From an uncultured Candidatus Saccharibacteria bacterium (GTDB lineage Bacteria; Patescibacteriota; Saccharimonadia; Saccharimonadales; CAZVRA01): 64,000 nt of DNA. Position 1 is the first letter of the stretch; every line of letters starts with the position of its first letter. The notes under the pieces are model-generated. The model searched no databases and was not told where the DNA came from. It saw only the letters and a program-made list of their open reading frames with translations. Shown here in pieces: positions 17,026 to 40,126 of the stretch. Both the position numbers and the translations under genes were made by a program. The stretch covers positions 91,569-155,568 of the forward strand of contig CAZVRA010000001.1 of assembly GCA_964630055.1 (NCBI GenBank), given 5' to 3'.

Positions 17026-17068
17026 CCTGGTTTGATGCTCGGCGGCTACCTGCGGTATACTAATTTAT

Positions 17069-17794
17069 ATGCCAAAAGATATACCGCGGAAAATGCTAAA
17101 GAAAATACCGACAGTAAAAAGAAAAGTAAAAACCGCAAAATCGTTGAGCGCCAGCATAAAGCTTGGGCCGACTGCTAAAACCGTTAGCAAAACCAGTTGG
17201 CTGGACCGATGGTACCCCAGAATACTGCTAGTTTTGGCGGTTATTGGTTTTGTGGCTTCGTTTGTGCTGACGCTAGAGAAGATTGCCATTATCAAGAACC
17301 CGCAACACCATTTAAGCTGTAGCATTAATCCGCTTTTGTCTTGCGGACCGATCATTACGTCGCCGCAGGCTAGTGCCTTTGGATTCCCCAACCCCATTAT
17401 CGGCTTGTTTGCCTTTAGTGTGCTAATTTGTGTGGCCATTACCATGATGGCTGGCGCAGTCGTGGACAAAACCAAACAGTGGTACTGGCGGCTATTTGTG
17501 GCTGGGCATTTGTTTGGCCTGGGCTTTGTGCTTTGGCTAATTCACGAAGCTGTTTTTGAGCTAAAGGCGCTGTGCATTTACTGCATGGTGGCCTGGGCGG
17601 TGACTTTTGCCCTAAATTGGTACGGCTATTTGTGGCTGAGCAGCACCGGTCGGCTGGTAGTTACAGGGGTGGGGCGACAGCTGCGAGACTGGGGTTTGCG
17701 CAATCACTTAGGTGTTCTGTTTTTGAGCTATCTGGCCGTTTTTGCAGTTATTTTGCTGCAATTTAGGGATTACTTCGAAAGTTTTTTGCACTAG
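17069..17794 (+). CDS. vitamin K epoxide reductase (VKOR) family membrane oxidoreductase
   Basis: Loop cysteines HHLSCSINPLLSCGP and CxxC in a TM helix (LCIYCMVAW). TATACT 17056-17061 lies 7 nt before the ATG. Confidence 0.8.
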   Translation: MPKDIPRKMLKKIPTVKRKVKTAKSLSASIKLGPTAKTVSKTSWLDRWYPRILLVLAVIGFVASFVLTLEKIAIIKNPQHHLSCSINPLLSCGPIITSPQASAFGFPNPIIGLFAFSVLICVAITMMAGAVVDKTKQWYWRLFVAGHLFGLGFVLWLIHEAVFELKALCIYCMVAWAVTFALNWYGYLWLSSTGRLVVTGVGRQLRDWGLRNHLGVLFLSYLAVFAVILLQFRDYFESFLH

Positions 17795-33198: not shown

Positions 33199-34581
33199 TT
33201 ATTTATTGGACTTTTTGGCTTTACTATTTTTACTCTTTGTTCGGTGCAAGCCGAGATAGGCCAGAATCAGCAAACCGCTCCAGGGAATCAGCTCACCAGT
33301 TTTGGTATAAAAGGTGTGGCGGCTATTTGTCTGTACAGTTACGACCTGCGAATCTATGCCGCTAAACAGGGTTAGTAACTCTCCATTGTGGGTATAAGCA
33401 TAGCCAGTAGCGCCGTTGGCCGACTGCAAGTAGCCGCGGGCGTTGGCCACTGCCATGAATCGGCCAAATGACCGTTGTTGCAAAAAGAACACCGGTGAAC
33501 CCTGAAAAATCCCCAAAGAAGCCGAGTTGCTAAAAACATTAGCGCCGCGACTGGCTAGCCATCGGTAATCCTGGGGCGCGATTATGCTAGAGCAAACGGC
33601 AGCGCCAACCTTTACTCCGTCGCCAACCTCAAACGGTTCCAGTTGCTTTGGCCCGCGGATTACGCCTTTGGCGTAACTAAAATAGTTGAGCGTTCCGACC
33701 TGGCCGGTGGCTCGCAAACCAATACGCACCAGATAGGGCAGGTCCTCGCCACCCGGAATCAGCCGATATTTGTCCTGCGCCTGCAAAAATCCGTCTTGGT
33801 TGTTGCCAACATGCATACGGTTGATGTGGCCAGTTTGGTCATTCGGGAAAATTTGCTCCGAACCGAGGAAGTAGGTCTTTGGCTGACCAGCCGCCGGCTG
33901 CTCTAACCGCTGATCCAGGTTGCTGTTATTAATTTTTTCTAGGCCATATTCCGGAAACACAACCAGTTTTTCGCCCTCTGGCTTGATGGCCGGAATTCTG
34001 GCATCGAGCGTTTCGCTAACCACGCGGGCCGTTAGCTGGCTGCCATCGGCACTTCGCCAAATTAGCCAGCTGGCGGTAGATATTACTACCAGAATGGCAA
34101 GCGGCAGGTAGGCTAGGCGCCGAGTTTGGCGCTGCCCGAGCAAAAAAATGGTGGCCCAAACAAACCCGGCCAGACCATAAAAACCAACCAGTCGGCCAGC
34201 AAATACCAGGGGTGTGTTAGCCAGCAGCAGCGCCGGCGAGGCCAGTGGCAACACACTGTCCCACTGGGCTTGCGGGCCAACCCAAAAAAGAGTCGGCAGC
34301 CAGGCAACGGCGTAATCTGCCAGAGCGCCCAACCCAATGGTGGCAGCCACCACGGCCGCCGGATGCCAATTGGCTGGTAAGCGTCGTCGCCAAAACCAAT
34401 GGATTATAAACACCGATGCAAAAATCTCAAAAGCAAAAACAATCGATGCAACCACCATAGCCTGCGGCCGTGACCCCGCTAGGTCCAGCATGTCCGTAAA
34501 AAACACCCAAGACCAATTAAGCCCATACCAAACAACCAGCCCCAAAAGGACTGGTTGTTTTAACTTTCTTAAAACCTTCAC
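33199..34581 (-). CDS. apolipoprotein N-acyltransferase-like protein (polytopic N-terminus + carbon-nitrogen hydrolase domain)
   Basis: GTG start. About 7 TM helices, then KLVVFPEYGL (catalytic Glu context) and VGAAVCSSII (Cys context), as in Lnt/CN-hydrolases. Confidence 0.55.
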   Translation of the reverse strand: MKVLRKLKQPVLLGLVVWYGLNWSWVFFTDMLDLAGSRPQAMVVASIVFAFEIFASVFIIHWFWRRRLPANWHPAAVVAATIGLGALADYAVAWLPTLFWVGPQAQWDSVLPLASPALLLANTPLVFAGRLVGFYGLAGFVWATIFLLGQRQTRRLAYLPLAILVVISTASWLIWRSADGSQLTARVVSETLDARIPAIKPEGEKLVVFPEYGLEKINNSNLDQRLEQPAAGQPKTYFLGSEQIFPNDQTGHINRMHVGNNQDGFLQAQDKYRLIPGGEDLPYLVRIGLRATGQVGTLNYFSYAKGVIRGPKQLEPFEVGDGVKVGAAVCSSIIAPQDYRWLASRGANVFSNSASLGIFQGSPVFFLQQRSFGRFMAVANARGYLQSANGATGYAYTHNGELLTLFSGIDSQVVTVQTNSRHTFYTKTGELIPWSGLLILAYLGLHRTKSKNSKAKKSNK

Positions 34582-34595
34582 TGATTTTTCTTTTG

Positions 34596-35330
34596 TTATG
34601 GGTTTTTCTTTGTTGGTGCTGGCGCTGGAGCAGGAGCTGGTGCTGGTGCTGGTGCTGGTGCCGGAGCTGAATTTTTGCTAGGAGTGTTTGTACTTACAGA
34701 GCTTATTGAAACACTAATGTAACCGACATTCATAGCACCTGTAGCATATGTAGACAAGTAGGCACCTGACCCAGCTCTACTGTCGCTCCTAAGGTAGAAG
34801 GAAGGGGTGCATATATTAGTGTAAGAAGAAGAGGATATTGTTACTAGGTTGCCTCTGACGTAACCTTCAGGATTAGTGCCCATATTAGTTGCCTCGACTC
34901 TGGCTTGTGTGCTAGAACCAGACACAGATCTTACATAAGCACATACTTTTACAGGTAGCCCTGCGTTAGCTATGACAAAATCCGCTAACTTAGACTGGCC
35001 ACTACGATTTCTTGTAGAGTCGACGTTGAGAGAGTTCCCTGTTCTCACTACATCTATATTATTTTTCTCTCCTGTGGTTTCACGAATAATCTGGGTCCCT
35101 TGATCTCCTACTATGTCTGCGGGTAATAATTTTAGTTCGGGTGTCGCCGCAAAACTCCTATACACCATCACACCACCACCAATTACGGCAAAGGCTAGAA
35201 CCGTAACTATCAACATAGTCTTTGGTGACCTTGTATTAATCCTAGACAAAAAGCCAAACGTACTCTTTTTGGTATTAGCACTAGAACTAACCTTGGCTCG
35301 GCTAGCTACTTTAGGTTTAGTTACGGGCAT
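34596..35330 (-). CDS. secreted/anchored protein with C-terminal (Ala-Pro)9 repeat
   Basis: N-terminal basic region + TM [18 protein letters not shown]. C-terminus [26 protein letters not shown]. Confidence 0.6.
   Translation of the reverse strand: [244 protein letters not shown]
34614..34667. repeat. hexanucleotide tandem repeat (TGGTGC-type unit, 9 units) encoding (AP)9
   Basis: Codon-by-codon reading of 34614-34667 on the minus strand gives nine Ala-Pro pairs. Central units are identical (tggtgc x4). Confidence 0.9.
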
Positions 35331-35393: not shown

Positions 35394-36074
35394 TCAAGCT
35401 TTTTGGGGATTATCTGGCTTTTGCTTGGGGTTTTGGCTAATTGGTTTGGTGGTTTCGGTACCAGCACCGCCGACTGTTTTGGCTAAAATTTCCATCATTC
35501 TTTTGGCATGCTCGCGGCTCATGCCGACGCGGGCAACGGTTGCCGACTGGCCAGAATTGCCGGTTTGCTGCATAAAACTGAGCACCACGCCGTGGTCGTC
35601 TACGGCCACATTGACGCGGTTGGTATAAACAATCCGCGGGTCTAGCGCCAGCAGCATGGCAATTGGTGGTAGCTGCTCTAGGGCAGATGGCAAGCGTTTT
35701 GACTGGTCGTCTCCGCCACGGCGCTGGTTGCTCGATCCTCTGTCATTATCGTGGTCATCGGCGTCAGGGTCGTAATCTTGGTCGGTGTCGTCTTCCTGAG
35801 GTAGATTGTCTGGGTCGTAGCCGGCCAAGCTCCAGCAGTCAAGAGCGGTTTGGTCGTCTACATCAAAATAACTAAATAGCAAAAACAATACGTCTTCGCT
35901 GGGGCGCTGTTCGCCGACTTCTATGCGGTTTAGTTGGCCGGGGTCAATTTCTACAGCGCCAGAAACTTCGTCTAGGCTGGCTTTTTGCTGTTGTCTTAAA
36001 ATGCGTAGCTGCTGGCCTAGGTCTTTAAAAGGCCGTTTTAGAGGTCCGTGGTCATTTTTCCCGGTTTTGCTCAT
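35394..36074 (-). CDS. XRE-family HTH protein with acidic linker and C-terminal DUF3467-like segment
   Basis: LGQQLRILRQQQKASLDEVSGAVEIDPGQLNRIEVGEQRPS HTH. D/E-rich linker. C-terminal VYTNRVNVAVDDHGVVLSF. ATG 36074 preferred (TATCAT 7 nt upstream on the minus strand). Confidence 0.7.
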   Translation of the reverse strand: MSKTGKNDHGPLKRPFKDLGQQLRILRQQQKASLDEVSGAVEIDPGQLNRIEVGEQRPSEDVLFLLFSYFDVDDQTALDCWSLAGYDPDNLPQEDDTDQDYDPDADDHDNDRGSSNQRRGGDDQSKRLPSALEQLPPIAMLLALDPRIVYTNRVNVAVDDHGVVLSFMQQTGNSGQSATVARVGMSREHAKRMMEILAKTVGGAGTETTKPISQNPKQKPDNPQKA

Positions 36075-36143
36075 TAGAAGTATGATACCCCTAAAGCGAT
36101 GGCATGGCAAATATGACGCAAATACGGCATACTATAAAAGCAT

Positions 36144-37172
36144 ATGCGTGTACAAGAAAAAGTTAGTCTAAAAGATCATTCGACCATGCGGCTGGGCGGC
36201 CAGGCCGCCTATTTTTGCACAATATCCGACAAGCACGAGCTGGTCAACGCGCTGGACTGGGCCGATAAGCATCGCCAAAAAGTCAAAATAATTGGTGGCG
36301 GTAGCAATTTGGTCTGGAGCGACGACGGTTTTGCCGGGCTGGTTATAGTCAACCAAATCAAGGGTTTTAAAGTGGTCAAACAGGGAAGCACCAGCTACGT
36401 AACGGTTGGCGCCGGTGAAGATTGGGACAGTGTGGTCGAGCGGACGGTGCGACTAGGCTTAAGCGGCATAGAGGCTTTGTCACTAATACCGGGCAGGGCC
36501 GGAGCGACCCCAGTGCAAAACGTGGGCGCTTACGGCCAGGATGTGTCGCAGACCCTGGTCAGAATAGAGGCTTACGACCGCGACAGTCAGGCTTTTATAA
36601 CTTTACAAGCCGAAGATTGCCAATTTAGTTACCGATACAGTCGTTTTAAGGGGCCAGACGCCGGTCGGTTTTTTATTGTTGCGCTGACATTTGCTTTGCA
36701 GCGAGTCAACCCTCGGCCACCTTTTTACCCAGCAGTGGCCAATTATTTGCGTGAGCACCGCATAAATGTGGTAACACCATTGGTGCTGCGCCAGGCAGTT
36801 ATAGCGATTCGGTCGGCCAAGTTGCCCGATCCGACTAAGGTGGCCAACAGTGGGTCTTTTTTTGGCAACCCAATTGTGGGGCCGCAAACCTTGGCCAAGC
36901 TGCTCAAAAAATACCCTGATGCGCCACATTGGGTTTTGTCGGGTGGTAATGCCAAACTTTCGGCCGCCTGGTTAATAGATCAGGCCGGGTTCAAGAATTT
37001 TCGCGACAAGAGTACCGGTATGGCCACCTGGCCCCAGCAGCCGCTGGTTTTGGTTAACGAAAAGGCCAAAAAAACCGAGGACTTGATAGTTTTTCAGGCC
37101 AAAATCCGCTCGGCCGTAGACAAAAAATTCGGCGTCTACCTAGAAAACGAACCCGAAATAGTCGAAGTGTAG
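36144..37172 (+). CDS. murB: UDP-N-acetylenolpyruvoylglucosamine reductase MurB
   Basis: LKDHSTMRLGGQAAYF, IIGGGSNLV, GIEALSLIPGRAGATPVQNVGAYG, SGSFFGNP. Confidence 0.9.
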   Translation: MRVQEKVSLKDHSTMRLGGQAAYFCTISDKHELVNALDWADKHRQKVKIIGGGSNLVWSDDGFAGLVIVNQIKGFKVVKQGSTSYVTVGAGEDWDSVVERTVRLGLSGIEALSLIPGRAGATPVQNVGAYGQDVSQTLVRIEAYDRDSQAFITLQAEDCQFSYRYSRFKGPDAGRFFIVALTFALQRVNPRPPFYPAVANYLREHRINVVTPLVLRQAVIAIRSAKLPDPTKVANSGSFFGNPIVGPQTLAKLLKKYPDAPHWVLSGGNAKLSAAWLIDQAGFKNFRDKSTGMATWPQQPLVLVNEKAKKTEDLIVFQAKIRSAVDKKFGVYLENEPEIVEV

Positions 37173-37173
37173 T

Positions 37174-38478
37174 CTAGGCTTGGTCGCTGGGCAAGGGAAA
37201 TTGCTCGGAAAATTGGCGGACTTCGCGGGCTAGGCGGACTAATTTGGCCTGGTCGCCGCGGTTTTGGATGGTGGCCTGCATCCAGCGGGCAATTTGCTCC
37301 ATGTCCTTAACCTTAAGCCCACGAGTGGTAATGGCGGGTGTGCCTAGGCGCAAGCCGCTGGGCCTAAAAGGTGGCAAGCTGTCGTTAGGTATGGCATTGC
37401 AGTTGGCGTTGAGGCCAATTTGGTCTAGAGCATCTTGGGCTTCGCGACCAGAAATGCCAAAACTGGACATCATGTCGATCATAATTAGGTGGTTGTCGGT
37501 ACCGCCGCCGACCAATTTAAAGCCGCAGTCCATTAGCTGACCGGCCAATTCTTGAGCGTTGTCTAGTATGGCCTGGGCATATTTGGCAAAGCTGGGCTGC
37601 AAGGCCTCGTTAAAAGCAACTGCTTTGGCGGCAATGCTGTGCATGTGCGGGCCACCCTGGAAGCCAGGGAAGACCTCGCGGTCAATAAGGGTTGGCAGGT
37701 TATCTATAGTTTTTGGCGGGGCTTTGAGCGGGTTGCTAACAGTACCCTTGGACAAAATTAGCCCGCCACGCGGTCCGCGCAAAGTTTTGTGAGTGGTGGT
37801 GGTTATAACATGAAAGCCAAAATCGAATGGGTTGGGCAAAACTTTGCCGGCGATTAATCCGGCAATATGAGCCATGTCGGCCATCAGCACGGCACCGACT
37901 TCTTGGCCGATGGCGGCAAATTTGGCGTAGTCGAGGCTGCGGGGATAGCCGCTAAAGCCGGCCACAATAATTTTGGGTTTTTCGCGCAGGGCAACCTGGC
38001 GCATTTGTTCGTAGTCTATGTCGCCTGTTTGGGGGTCGGACACGCCGTAGCGCACAAAATTATAAAGCTTGGCGCTGCTGGTAACTGGAGCGCCGTGGGT
38101 CAGGTGGCCGCCGTGATCTAGCCGCATGGCCATAATGGTGTCGCCCGGTTCCAGCCACGCTTGGTAGACGGCAATATTGGCTGGAGCGCCGCTGTGGGGC
38201 TGAACATTGGCGTGGTCGGCGCCAAAAAGTTTTTTGGCTCGTTCTATGGCTAGCGATTCTAGTTGGTCGGTGTTTTCTTGCCCTCCGTAGTAGCGTTTGC
38301 CGGGGTAGCCTTCGGAGTATTTGTTGGTAAAAACGCTGCCTAAAGCGGTTAGGACGTCTCGGCTAACGTAATTTTCGCTGGGAATTAGTTCTAACCCTCG
38401 CCGTTGGCGGGATTCTTCGGCGGCAATTAATTTGGCCACAGTTTTGTCGTGCATAATTGGTGCGTTGGCGTCTGACAT
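37174..38478 (-). CDS. glyA: serine hydroxymethyltransferase
   Basis: ELIPSENYVS, YPGKRYYGG, TTTTHKTLRGPRGG (PLP lysine). SD GGAGGAG. Confidence 0.97.
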   Translation of the reverse strand: MSDANAPIMHDKTVAKLIAAEESRQRRGLELIPSENYVSRDVLTALGSVFTNKYSEGYPGKRYYGGQENTDQLESLAIERAKKLFGADHANVQPHSGAPANIAVYQAWLEPGDTIMAMRLDHGGHLTHGAPVTSSAKLYNFVRYGVSDPQTGDIDYEQMRQVALREKPKIIVAGFSGYPRSLDYAKFAAIGQEVGAVLMADMAHIAGLIAGKVLPNPFDFGFHVITTTTHKTLRGPRGGLILSKGTVSNPLKAPPKTIDNLPTLIDREVFPGFQGGPHMHSIAAKAVAFNEALQPSFAKYAQAILDNAQELAGQLMDCGFKLVGGGTDNHLIMIDMMSSFGISGREAQDALDQIGLNANCNAIPNDSLPPFRPSGLRLGTPAITTRGLKVKDMEQIARWMQATIQNRGDQAKLVRLAREVRQFSEQFPLPSDQA

Positions 38479-38602
38479 TGCTACTCCTCCTGAACTTACA
38501 ATTTATAGTAACACAAACAGGGGTGTCAGGCACGGGCAAAACGCCAAAAATGCTGGCAAAAATACTTGCGGATTATCTCACGAATAGTATACTTAAGGGC
38601 AC

Positions 38603-40126
38603 ATGTCGACCACAAACCAAAAAATAGGTCAATTTATTTACCAAGTACGGCAAGAAAGAGGTCTCACGCAGGCCGCACTGGCCAAGCGCCTAGGCACTAG
38701 CCAATCGGCGGTTAATCGGATCGAGCACGGCAAGCAAAACCTCAGCTTAGAAACGTTGGGTCGAATTAGCGACGTGCTGAATCGGCCCATAATTCAGACT
38801 GGCGACAGCGGCGTGAACCTGCGTATAGAAGGCGGGCATGAATTGCACGGTAGTGTTACGCTTAAAACCAGCAAAAATGCCGCGGTGGCGCTGCTGTGTG
38901 CCAGCTTGCTAAATACTGGCGTGACGCGTTTTAAGGCCTTTCCGCGGATAGAAGAAGTCTACCGGATTATAGAGGTGCTTGAGAGCATTGGGGTCAAGGT
39001 AAAGTGGCTGCCCGGTAATGATCTGGAGCTGCGCCGCCCTGCCAAGCTGGATTTGGCAAATATTAATGCCAAATCGGCTCGTCGCACGCGTAGCGTTTTG
39101 ATGCTGCTTGGACCGCTCATGCACCAGCATAAAAGTTTTACCATACCGTATGCTGGCGGTTGCAAGCTTGGTTCGCGGACGGTGTCGCCTCACCTTATGG
39201 CGCTAGAAAATTTTGGTGTCGATGTAGTGGCCGAAGAGGGTCATTACCAGGTCACGGTGGGCAAAAAAGTGCCCAAAGACCGAGTGGTTTTGTACGAGCA
39301 GGGCAACACCGTAACCAACAACGCGCTTATGGCGGCAGCCGGCACCAAGGGCACGACCATCATTCATGGGGCCAGCGCCGACTACATGGTCCAGGACCTG
39401 TGCTACTTTTTGCAAAGGTTGGGCGTAAAAATACAAGGGGTCGGCTCGTCAATTTTGACTGTTCACGGGGTTGGTATGGTCAAAAAAAATATTCGTTTTG
39501 GCTCGACCGAAGACCCAATCGAGGCGATGTTTTTTGTTTCGGCCGCGGTCACGACTAACTCGCAGCTAACAATCTGCCGAGTGCCAATCGACTATATTGC
39601 GCTAGAATTGCTTAAGCTAAAGGTCATGGGCCTAAAGTTTTCTACGACCGACCGCTACAAAGCCGAAAACGGTACCACCGACCTCGTTGACCTAACAATT
39701 TACAAGCATGATGGTTCGCTAAAAGCGCCGGCCGACAAGCTCCATCCAAATTTGTGGCCCGGCATTAACCCCGACAATATCCCATATTTTGTACCAATTT
39801 GCGGCGTCTTGCGCGGTCGAACGCTAATTCACGACTGGATGTTCGAAAATCGGGCCATTTATTACACCGAAATGACCAAAATTGGCATGAATGTCGAATT
39901 GGTCGACCCCCACCGCCTGTATATTAAGGGGCCAACGGCTTTTGTCGCCGGCGACGTGGTCTGCCCGCCAGCACTGCGTCCTGCCAGCCTGCTGCTAATT
40001 GGCATGCTGGCTGCCAAAGGCACTAGCATGTTGCGCAACGTCTACACCATTAACCGTGGTTACGAAGACATTGCCGAGCGGCTTAATAGTTTGGGTGCGC
40101 AAATCACCATTTTGCACGAATTGTAA
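38603..40126 (+). CDS. murA: UDP-N-acetylglucosamine 1-carboxyvinyltransferase MurA with N-terminal XRE-type HTH domain fusion
   Basis: Residues 1-65: IGQFIYQVRQERGLTQAALAKRLGTSQSAVNRIEHGKQNLSLETLGRISDVL (HTH_3-like). Then LRIEGGHELHGSVTLKTSKNAAVALLCASLL and the active-site Cys context YAGGCKLGSRTV, typical of MurA. One uninterrupted 507-aa ORF. Confidence 0.9.
   Translation: MSTTNQKIGQFIYQVRQERGLTQAALAKRLGTSQSAVNRIEHGKQNLSLETLGRISDVLNRPIIQTGDSGVNLRIEGGHELHGSVTLKTSKNAAVALLCASLLNTGVTRFKAFPRIEEVYRIIEVLESIGVKVKWLPGNDLELRRPAKLDLANINAKSARRTRSVLMLLGPLMHQHKSFTIPYAGGCKLGSRTVSPHLMALENFGVDVVAEEGHYQVTVGKKVPKDRVVLYEQGNTVTNNALMAAAGTKGTTIIHGASADYMVQDLCYFLQRLGVKIQGVGSSILTVHGVGMVKKNIRFGSTEDPIEAMFFVSAAVTTNSQLTICRVPIDYIALELLKLKVMGLKFSTTDRYKAENGTTDLVDLTIYKHDGSLKAPADKLHPNLWPGINPDNIPYFVPICGVLRGRTLIHDWMFENRAIYYTEMTKIGMNVELVDPHRLYIKGPTAFVAGDVVCPPALRPASLLLIGMLAAKGTSMLRNVYTINRGYEDIAERLNSLGAQITILHEL

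Follow-up and report, generated by a model that had tools for sequence, protein, structure and literature searches.

A helix-turn-helix domain fused to MurA in Saccharibacteria and a predicted operator over the promoter of the fused gene

MurA (UDP-N-acetylglucosamine enolpyruvyl transferase) carries out the first committed step in the synthesis of peptidoglycan, and fosfomycin targets it. In a contig of an uncultured Candidatus Saccharibacteria bacterium (CAZVRA010000001.1, of which a stretch of 64,000 nt, here called the window, was analysed), this enzyme is encoded together with an XRE-type helix-turn-helix (HTH) domain in a gene that we refer to as HTH-murA. Why should an enzyme of cell-wall synthesis carry a DNA-binding domain? 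An earlier note on this DNA had reported one uninterrupted open reading frame (ORF) of 507 residues and had proposed that a DNA-binding enzyme could regulate its own gene. The ORF was found exactly as claimed in the ORF listing and in the sequence. For autoregulation the support is comparative: a putative operator is fixed over the gene's own -10 box, and it covaries with the recognition helix of the fused domain. Our reading, to which we give a probability of roughly 0.7, is that an active MurA represses its own transcription via this palindrome and would thus be a bifunctional ‘trigger enzyme’.

The N-terminal domain had been called an XRE/HTH_3 domain, and a profile search of the N-terminus was positive: Pfam HTH_3 (PF01381) matches residues 12–63 at E = 4.4e-16, its 59.1 bits being well over the cut-off of 23. 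In the AlphaFold 2 (AF2) model it forms a four-helix domain (residues 2–18, 23–30, 34–41 and 49–59) in which the helix-turn-helix is present. The closest solved structures found for the HTH in a PDB search are HipB and a designed DNA-binding protein, and PRK08154, a model of the BzdR architecture discussed below, matches it weakly. The conservation of the domain was assessed in a scan of GTDB with one genome per species, which returned 144 relatives. The best 80 (L001–L080), which make up the 80-locus set used below, are titled Saccharibacteria, Saccharimonadales or unclassified, except for one Parcubacteria. Eight residues of the recognition helix (T32, S33, Q34, S35, A36, N38, R39 and E41) are invariant in all 80 loci, V37 is sometimes I and I40 is sometimes M. 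Mean pairwise identity over the 80 species is 82% for the HTH, 74% for the MurA domain and 50% for the linker between them (residues 61–72), and by this measure the DNA-binding domain is constrained at least as strongly as the enzyme domain. The linker comprises about 10 residues; the predicted local distance difference test score (pLDDT) of the model is below 50 at residues 65–69 and averages about 52 over residues 61–70.

When the upstream regions were aligned, a 16-bp inverted repeat (ATAYC-N6-GRTAT) came to light that overlaps the -10 box in the promoter of the gene itself. Written out, the family consensus operator is ATATCATATATGATAT. The exact palindrome is found at positions -27 to -31 from the start codon in 55 of the 80 loci and at -132 to -143 in three more, and most of the remaining loci have versions with one or two mismatches at the same place. 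It occurs 64 times in 674 kb, compared with 3.8 ± 2.0 occurrences expected from 100 shuffles. More than 100 loci carry the palindrome over the -10 box of the fused gene, and it goes with the gene in each deep branch that was looked at. In the relatives, the right half and the -10 box together spell TGRTATAAT, an extended -10, so that this half also serves the promoter. The promoter spacer contains the left half, which is present at 42 of 54 murA promoters versus at most 17 of 441 other -10-like sites. On this comparison, the left half is specific to HTH-murA and is no promoter element. The centres of the half-sites are 11 bp apart, one helical turn, which would be the usual geometry of a dimeric HTH repressor.

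The putative operator of the window is a degenerate copy of the family palindrome (Table 1). Its ATCTC half-site variant also occurs in Nonomuraea and other lineages, and its right half, AGTAT, is common to the window and its closest relatives L001, L003 and L035. When the window was scanned with a position weight matrix (PWM) of the operator, which is dominated by the -10 box, this site was the second-best match in the 64 kb and stood at the family position. Outside the promoter the matches are weak, the best (score 10) being at 17064 and the second (score 8) at 2256. The former (17064..17085, GGTATATCTTTTGGCATATAAA) lies within a larger inverted repeat, GCGGTATA...TATACCGC, and may be a chance match.

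The TATACT box that the earlier note had placed 9 nt before the ATG was read at that position. A consensus promoter scan of 38400–38700 reported no plus-strand promoter, because the -35 hexamer matches at only three of six positions. Between the -10 box and the ATG (38588..38602) there is no Shine–Dalgarno sequence, and the spacing of 9 nt recurs in most of the fused loci examined. Since the -10 box is only 9–14 nt from the ATG, the HTH-MurA mRNA is probably essentially leaderless, with an expected start some 2–3 nt ahead of the ATG.

Does the fused HTH itself read the palindrome? Within the 80 close Saccharibacteria loci, where S33 is invariant, covariation is uninformative; it is seen only with more distant loci. 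These came from a metagenome scan, which gave 587 relatives, of which 80 loci were retrieved. Among these 80 distant loci a second operator type was found, ATAGC-N6-GCTAT, which tracks a change of the first recognition-helix residue. Over 123 loci, base 4 of the half-site changes together with residue 33, which is S or T. Where the helix reads T-S-Q-S (97 loci scored), 94 loci have half-sites without G at position 4 and three have G in at least one half; where it reads T-T-Q-S (26 loci scored), two are without G and 24 have G in at least one half (22 in both). The pairing TSQS–ATATC or TTQS–ATAGC is concordant in 118 of the 123 loci (Fisher p = 4e-20, uncorrected for phylogeny). In a neighbour-joining tree of the MurA domain the lineages of the two types are interleaved, with 75 of 77 tips concordant, and parsimony on this tree requires at least five helix changes and at least three operator changes. 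What varies is the free N in the TGN of the extended -10 and, with it, its counterpart in the left half, and such a change cannot be put down to promoter constraints. Residue 33 corresponds, as we assume, to the first base-contacting residue in the recognition helix of 434 repressor, which we take as a lead and not as a test. As judged from these comparisons, the case for the fused HTH itself as the reader of the palindrome rests most strongly on this covariation.

Autoregulation would then work as follows. The N-terminal XRE HTH, tethered by its short linker, would bind the 16-bp inverted repeat as a dimer, and the bound repeat would cover the promoter spacer and the -10 box of the protein's own gene. 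As the repeat covers the -10 box, binding would occlude RNA polymerase and MurA would repress its own synthesis. Such negative autoregulation would provide homeostatic control of the MurA level. More speculatively, DNA binding would respond to the ligand state of the MurA fold. Candidate states are the open form versus the form closed with UDP-N-acetylglucosamine (UDP-GlcNAc) and phosphoenolpyruvate (PEP), or the dormant complex with UDP-N-acetylmuramic acid (UDP-MurNAc) and covalently bound PEP, known from PDB entries 3swd and 3su9. Ligand-tuned binding would let the pool of cell-wall precursors act on murA transcription; we put it forward tentatively and think it somewhat more probable that DNA binding is not coupled to ligands.

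Several points weigh against autoregulation. MurA enzymes are generally monomeric, and the proposed mode of binding needs a dimer. The window operator has two deviations from the strict consensus and a PWM score of about 9 versus a median of 22, and autoregulation may be weak in the window genome. Extra operator copies in the flanks of the 80 loci are at chance level (6 elsewhere versus about 4 expected). The covariation counts are phylogenetically non-independent. Binding, repression and enzyme activity are all predicted from comparison.

The best-surviving alternative is that the HTH has been repurposed, for protein contacts as in the RodZ HTH with MreB or for another DNA target, and that the palindrome is read by another factor, for example the second XRE-type protein encoded nearby (HTH-DUF3467). 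This protein is syntenic in 63 of the 80 Saccharibacteria loci, unfused murA relatives are divergent from mreB, and binding of the palindrome by the fused HTH is deduced from sequence comparison. However, the palindrome also accompanies the fused gene where HTH-DUF3467 was not found in the flanks, namely in Nonomuraea and in the metagenome loci (0 of 80 with HTH-DUF3467), and the specificity base of the operator covaries with the recognition helix of the fused protein itself. A RodZ-like cytoskeletal HTH protein was ruled out, as no Pfam HTH_25 match was found and the AF2 model shows a soluble HTH plus MurA fold throughout. We consider a repurposed HTH unlikely, and the protein-interaction alternative is less favoured than autoregulation.

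Autorepression by an active MurA further demands that the enzyme domain is functional. The earlier note had described a complete MurA after the HTH, and this holds: Pfam EPSP_synthase matches residues 76–494 (E = 2.6e-36) and the NCBIfam model PRK09369 (MurA) residues 73–503, with 304.6 bits versus a cut-off of 297. The equivalog TIGR01072 scores 286.5 bits, under its cut-off of 392.7. As this score is below the cut-off and that of PRK09369 just above its own, the enzyme domain is a divergent MurA. Solved MurA chains match residues 71–506 (E = 1e-51 and weaker). The AF2 model of the window protein (pLDDT 84, predicted template modelling score 0.81) shows a confident MurA fold, and in a Foldseek search of the PDB the top 45 hits are all MurA or NikO with template modelling (TM) scores of 0.83–0.91 normalised to the target. 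For solved MurA structures the values are 0.85–0.91, with the same normalisation, and the two-domain inside-out alpha/beta barrel of MurA is present. No HTH-MurA fusion was found among the solved structures in this search.

All nine catalytic and substrate-binding positions checked (K22, N23, R91, C115, R120, D305, R331, R371 and R397 in E. coli numbering) are kept in the window protein, and also in Saccharibacteria, in Nonomuraea and in the closest unfused relatives. The motif positions of the E. coli sequence used as reference agree with the PDB alignment. The active-site Cys had been located in YAGGCKLGSRTV; it is residue 187, which aligns with Cys115 of E. coli and with the PDB MurA. It lies within a loop of low pLDDT (residues 187–191), as expected for the mobile Cys loop. 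D369 of E. coli is replaced by Ala throughout the clade of the window protein, and the domain has an insertion near residues 345–388, of which residues 381–387 are of low confidence. From these features, the C-terminal 435 residues are probably a catalytically competent MurA and the working MurA of the cell.

A second alternative is that the protein is only a transcription factor here, the MurA fold being a ligand sensor without turnover, and that the working MurA is encoded elsewhere. The divergence of the MurA domain from the TIGR01072 model would fit this, the search for a second murA covered 64 kb of the genome, and catalytically dead HTH-MurA-like regulators do exist in related lineages. 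These form a divergent clade (among others P0130, P0133, P0137, P0143, P0145, P0170, P0184 and P0286–P0289) that is 32–38% identical to the window protein. C115 and R91 are lost in all members and R120 in all but one, and several have also lost K22, D305, R371 or R397. The HTH is kept, with the pattern TSQSA[VI]xRIExGxQNL[ST], and the family palindrome was found upstream of the gene or its operon in seven of seven dead-clade loci examined. In four of the seven (L082, L165, L166 and L167) the dead gene is divergent from an operon with a stand-alone, full-scoring murA, which also holds murB and/or Mur ligases, and the palindrome lies within the shared intergenic region of 25–84 nt. Next after the dead gene comes a Mur ligase gene, murF in the case of L082; in L167 ddl stands between the two.

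The same clade provides the main argument against this alternative. Every fused copy with a stand-alone murA beside it lacks C115, R91 and R120, whereas the nine residues are intact in the window protein, in its nearest unfused relatives and in 114 of 118 further relatives obtained with a dead-clade query (P0286–P0403). This suggests that the catalytic residues are kept only where the fused copy is the working enzyme. Moreover, no second murA was found within the 64-kb window. That the window protein is a mere transcription factor is in our view quite improbable. Judged by their residues, the dead paralogues themselves can only be regulators. As they keep the HTH and the operator, the HTH–operator function is separable from catalysis, and the MurA fold is presumably retained as a sensor or dimerisation module. 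One dead-clade locus (L083, 4683..7554) has an operator, ATATC-ATATAG-GATAT, upstream of a NUDIX / NTP_transferase / HTH-MurA-like operon; it is not directly before the regulator gene, and a weaker second site precedes the NTP_transferase gene.

The fusion is real and conserved. The whole protein is encoded in one ORF over query residues 1–507 in all 80 best genome loci (three start at residue 5 or end at residue 505–506), with an ATG at the aligned start in 77. In a search of 5.8 billion proteins, the best 120 matches, which were those considered, have 74–100% identity at 100% query coverage, about 506–510 residues and both Pfam domains; the sources list them as MurA of Candidatus Saccharibacteria or Patescibacteria. 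A query with a distant family member gave 1,296 proteins at E ≤ 1e-20; the best 120 of these all have HTH_3 plus EPSP_synthase, and their names include Colwellbacteria, Taylorbacteria, Liptonbacteria, Parcubacteria and Saccharimonadales. The survey of domain architectures proposed in the earlier note thus shows the combination to be widespread in Saccharibacteria and other Patescibacteria. The statement that MurA is normally a stand-alone enzyme applies to model bacteria and fails here, where the fused form is the norm in Saccharibacteria and much of Patescibacteria (all 80 genome loci and 76 of the 80 distant metagenome loci); the fusion is therefore not peculiar to the window genome. Because of these counts, and because the HTH is more conserved than the enzyme, the fusion is, on comparative grounds, under selection. 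An assembly, frameshift or gene-calling artefact joining two genes has virtually no probability left and was rejected: nothing was found in its favour, and one uninterrupted ORF that agrees in start and length is present in 80 independent species-level assemblies and the same ORF in hundreds of database clusters from NCBI, JGI, ENA and Logan.

The four unfused metagenome loci are nested within fused clades in the neighbour-joining tree of the MurA domain. Three of them adjoin mreB (L122, 415..1824; L128, 1931..3306; L134, 1902..3288); their ORF begins directly at the MurA domain and is divergent from mreB. In a split-gene (Rosetta-stone) test no separate HTH gene was found upstream of these three, the neighbour being mreB. 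Given their nesting and the lack of a separate upstream HTH gene, the unfused loci are secondary losses. L134 keeps a relic of the right half, GCTATAAT.

Outside Patescibacteria the family reaches an actinomycete. The nearest representative of the 50%-identity clusters is a Nonomuraea protein (WP_214634277.1) with 54% identity over residues 7–504; its 90%-identity cluster has 246 members. In Nonomuraea sp. NEAU-A123 (L081, JAHFZZ010000002.1, 7972..9530) we found an HTH-MurA with the catalytic Cys and the operator ATCTCATATGTGAGAT. The palindrome, ATCTC-ATATGT-GAGAT, stands at -29 and forms an AT-rich island in DNA of 69% GC. Upstream neighbours are a gene for a formyltransferase-C/enoyl-CoA-hydratase fusion and one for an AMP-binding enzyme, and a phage-type integrase gene is located downstream. 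As its GC content of 68% matches that of the host genome, the Nonomuraea gene is an old resident. Actinomycetota is the phylum that includes the known hosts of Saccharibacteria, and lateral transfer between the two groups, in either direction, is plausible.

In the window HTH-murA is divergent from glyA, as had been noted. The order HTH-DUF3467 / murB / glyA / HTH-murA is conserved in 63 of the 80 Saccharibacteria loci. The separate XRE-type protein reported to be divergent from murB is real (Pfam HTH_31, E = 3.6e-9, plus a weak DUF3467 match), but the reported position 36074 is an internal ATG, and the longest ORF reaches 36110 with a TTG start. It may be a second dedicated cell-wall regulator. 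The ATAYC palindrome was not found in the HTH-DUF3467/murB intergenic DNA, where the only recurrent element seen was GCAAG, often about 30–40 nt before the murB -10 box. The HTH-DUF3467/murB pair is also present in the distant locus L084 (2703..4413), in which the XRE-type protein has HTH_31/HTH_3 plus a weak DUF3467 match. The window also encodes on the minus strand a 244-residue protein (34596..35330) that is hydrophobic in an N-terminal segment and carries an (Ala-Pro)n repeat close to its C-terminus and, adjoining it, a 460-residue multi-pass membrane protein (33199..34581) whose VVFPEYG motif resembles the CN-hydrolase domain of apolipoprotein N-acyltransferase.

Table 1. Positions of HTH-murA, its parts and promoter elements, its neighbours in the window, and the loci of the dead paralogues (the latter numbered within each locus).
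Feature	Position	Strand	Remarks
HTH-MurA gene	38603..40126	+	single 507-residue ORF, ATG start, both domains in one frame
XRE/HTH_3 DNA-binding domain, residues 8–63	38624..38791	+	Pfam HTH_3, AF2 helices
Recognition helix T32-S-Q-S-A-V-N-R-I-E41	38696..38725	+	conserved core, 80 Saccharibacteria loci
Flexible linker, residues 64–72	38792..38818	+	low pLDDT, least conserved segment
MurA domain, residues 73–505	38819..40117	+	PRK09369, PDB matches, Foldseek, conserved residues
Active-site Cys187 codon	39161..39163	+	aligns with E. coli Cys115
Putative operator ATCTC-ACGAAT-AGTAT	38575..38590	.	starts 28 nt before ATG; degenerate copy of family palindrome
-10 box TATACT	38588..38593	+	read from sequence; overlapped by operator right half
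Weak -35-like hexamer TTGCGG	38566..38571	+	16 nt upstream of -10 box; relatives have CTTG(T/C)A there
glyA	37174..38478	-	divergent from HTH-MurA gene
murB	36144..37172	+	divergent from second XRE protein gene
Second XRE-type protein (HTH-DUF3467)	35394..36110	-	longest ORF, TTG start
Dead-paralogue locus L082	95..6201
Dead-paralogue locus L165	275..9106
Dead-paralogue locus L166	2714..8001
Dead-paralogue locus L167	3558..10321

How does HTH-MurA compare with known systems? Among the trigger enzymes, BirA combines a winged HTH with biotin ligase, NadR an HTH with nicotinamide mononucleotide (NMN) adenylyltransferase/kinase, and PutA a ribbon-helix-helix domain with proline dehydrogenase. The archaeal RbkR, a riboflavin kinase and regulator, is likewise an enzyme fused to a DNA-binding domain (PMC5397151). 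All four resemble HTH-MurA in joining a metabolic enzyme and a DNA-binding domain in one polypeptide, which in HTH-MurA is found at the level of both sequence and structure. They control genes of their own pathway through an operator over the promoter of their own gene or operon; for HTH-MurA this is predicted. HTH-MurA differs from the four in its MurA/EPSP-synthase fold, its XRE/HTH_3 domain and its pathway, that of peptidoglycan precursors. It is also unlike the trigger enzymes in that its apparent target is its own promoter only.

The closest architecture is that of BzdR, in which an XRE-type HTH is followed by a linker and a catalytically inactive effector domain derived from shikimate kinase (PMC3602430). 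Both have an N-terminal HTH_3-type domain, a linker and a C-terminal domain of an enzyme fold, although the enzyme folds differ. The direct analogue of BzdR is the dead HTH-MurA-like paralogues: a loss of catalytic residues was found only in distant paralogues (such as P0130, P0133, P0137, P0170, P0184 and P0286–P0289), whereas the window protein, with all nine checked residues, matches the bifunctional ‘missing link’ (PMC3602430). For BzdR this intermediate had to be built synthetically, as chimera Q1 (PMC3602430). By sequence comparison, the HTH-MurA family shows both stages from enzyme to regulator, bifunctional and dead, naturally.

Canonical stand-alone MurA (E. coli, E. cloacae and others; PDB 1uae, 5ujs and 3swd) has the same fold, catalytic residues and mobile-loop Cys, and as this Cys lies in the mobile loop, the window MurA is probably sensitive to fosfomycin. 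The window protein differs from it by a sequence identity of only about 25–28% in structure superpositions and by the extra 70-residue HTH plus linker. Known control of MurA is either allosteric or proteolytic; it comprises UDP-MurNAc feedback inhibition and degradation by ClpCP through ReoM/PrkA, and neither is transcriptional self-repression. The stand-alone XRE/Cro-C1 repressors and HipB-type antitoxins share with HTH-MurA the HTH family and a palindromic operator over their own promoter, with negative autoregulation. They are small, however, and dimerise alone or via the toxin, whereas the partner domain in HTH-MurA is an essential enzyme of 435 residues.

Public databases carry HTH-MurA annotated merely as MurA or ‘helix-turn-helix domain-containing protein’. 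No description of the fusion, its operator or its dead paralogues was found in the full-text literature, subscription-only literature being outside the search. Enzyme-fused autorepressors are known as a kind, and HTH-MurA, its operator and its dead paralogues appear to be undescribed.

A broader and doubtful picture may be drawn. In Saccharibacteria and many other Patescibacteria, the fused HTH-MurA could be both the sole MurA and a metabolite-sensing repressor, whose affinity for DNA would follow the open or closed, UDP-MurNAc- or PEP-loaded state of the enzyme. It would thereby be a one-protein homeostat of precursor flux, and lateral transfer into Nonomuraea would belong to this picture too. 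The family would keep every stage between enzyme and transcription factor: unfused MurA, the active fused autorepressor and, after duplication, a dead sensor-regulator of a stand-alone murA–murB–mur ligase operon. We think it unlikely that this picture holds in all its parts.

To our knowledge, transcriptional regulation is poorly understood in the large group Patescibacteria (candidate phyla radiation), whose members are mostly uncultured and have very small genomes. The operator, its position, and residue 33 as the predicted switch of specificity (S33 or T33 paired with T or G at base 4 of the half-site) are concrete predictions for this group. If true, a MurA equipped with a repressor domain would represent a novel mode of control at the first step of peptidoglycan synthesis. 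The copy in Nonomuraea may reflect gene exchange between Saccharibacteria and Actinomycetota, and the series from active fusion to dead sensor-regulator would be a natural counterpart to the synthetic reconstruction of BzdR (PMC3602430).

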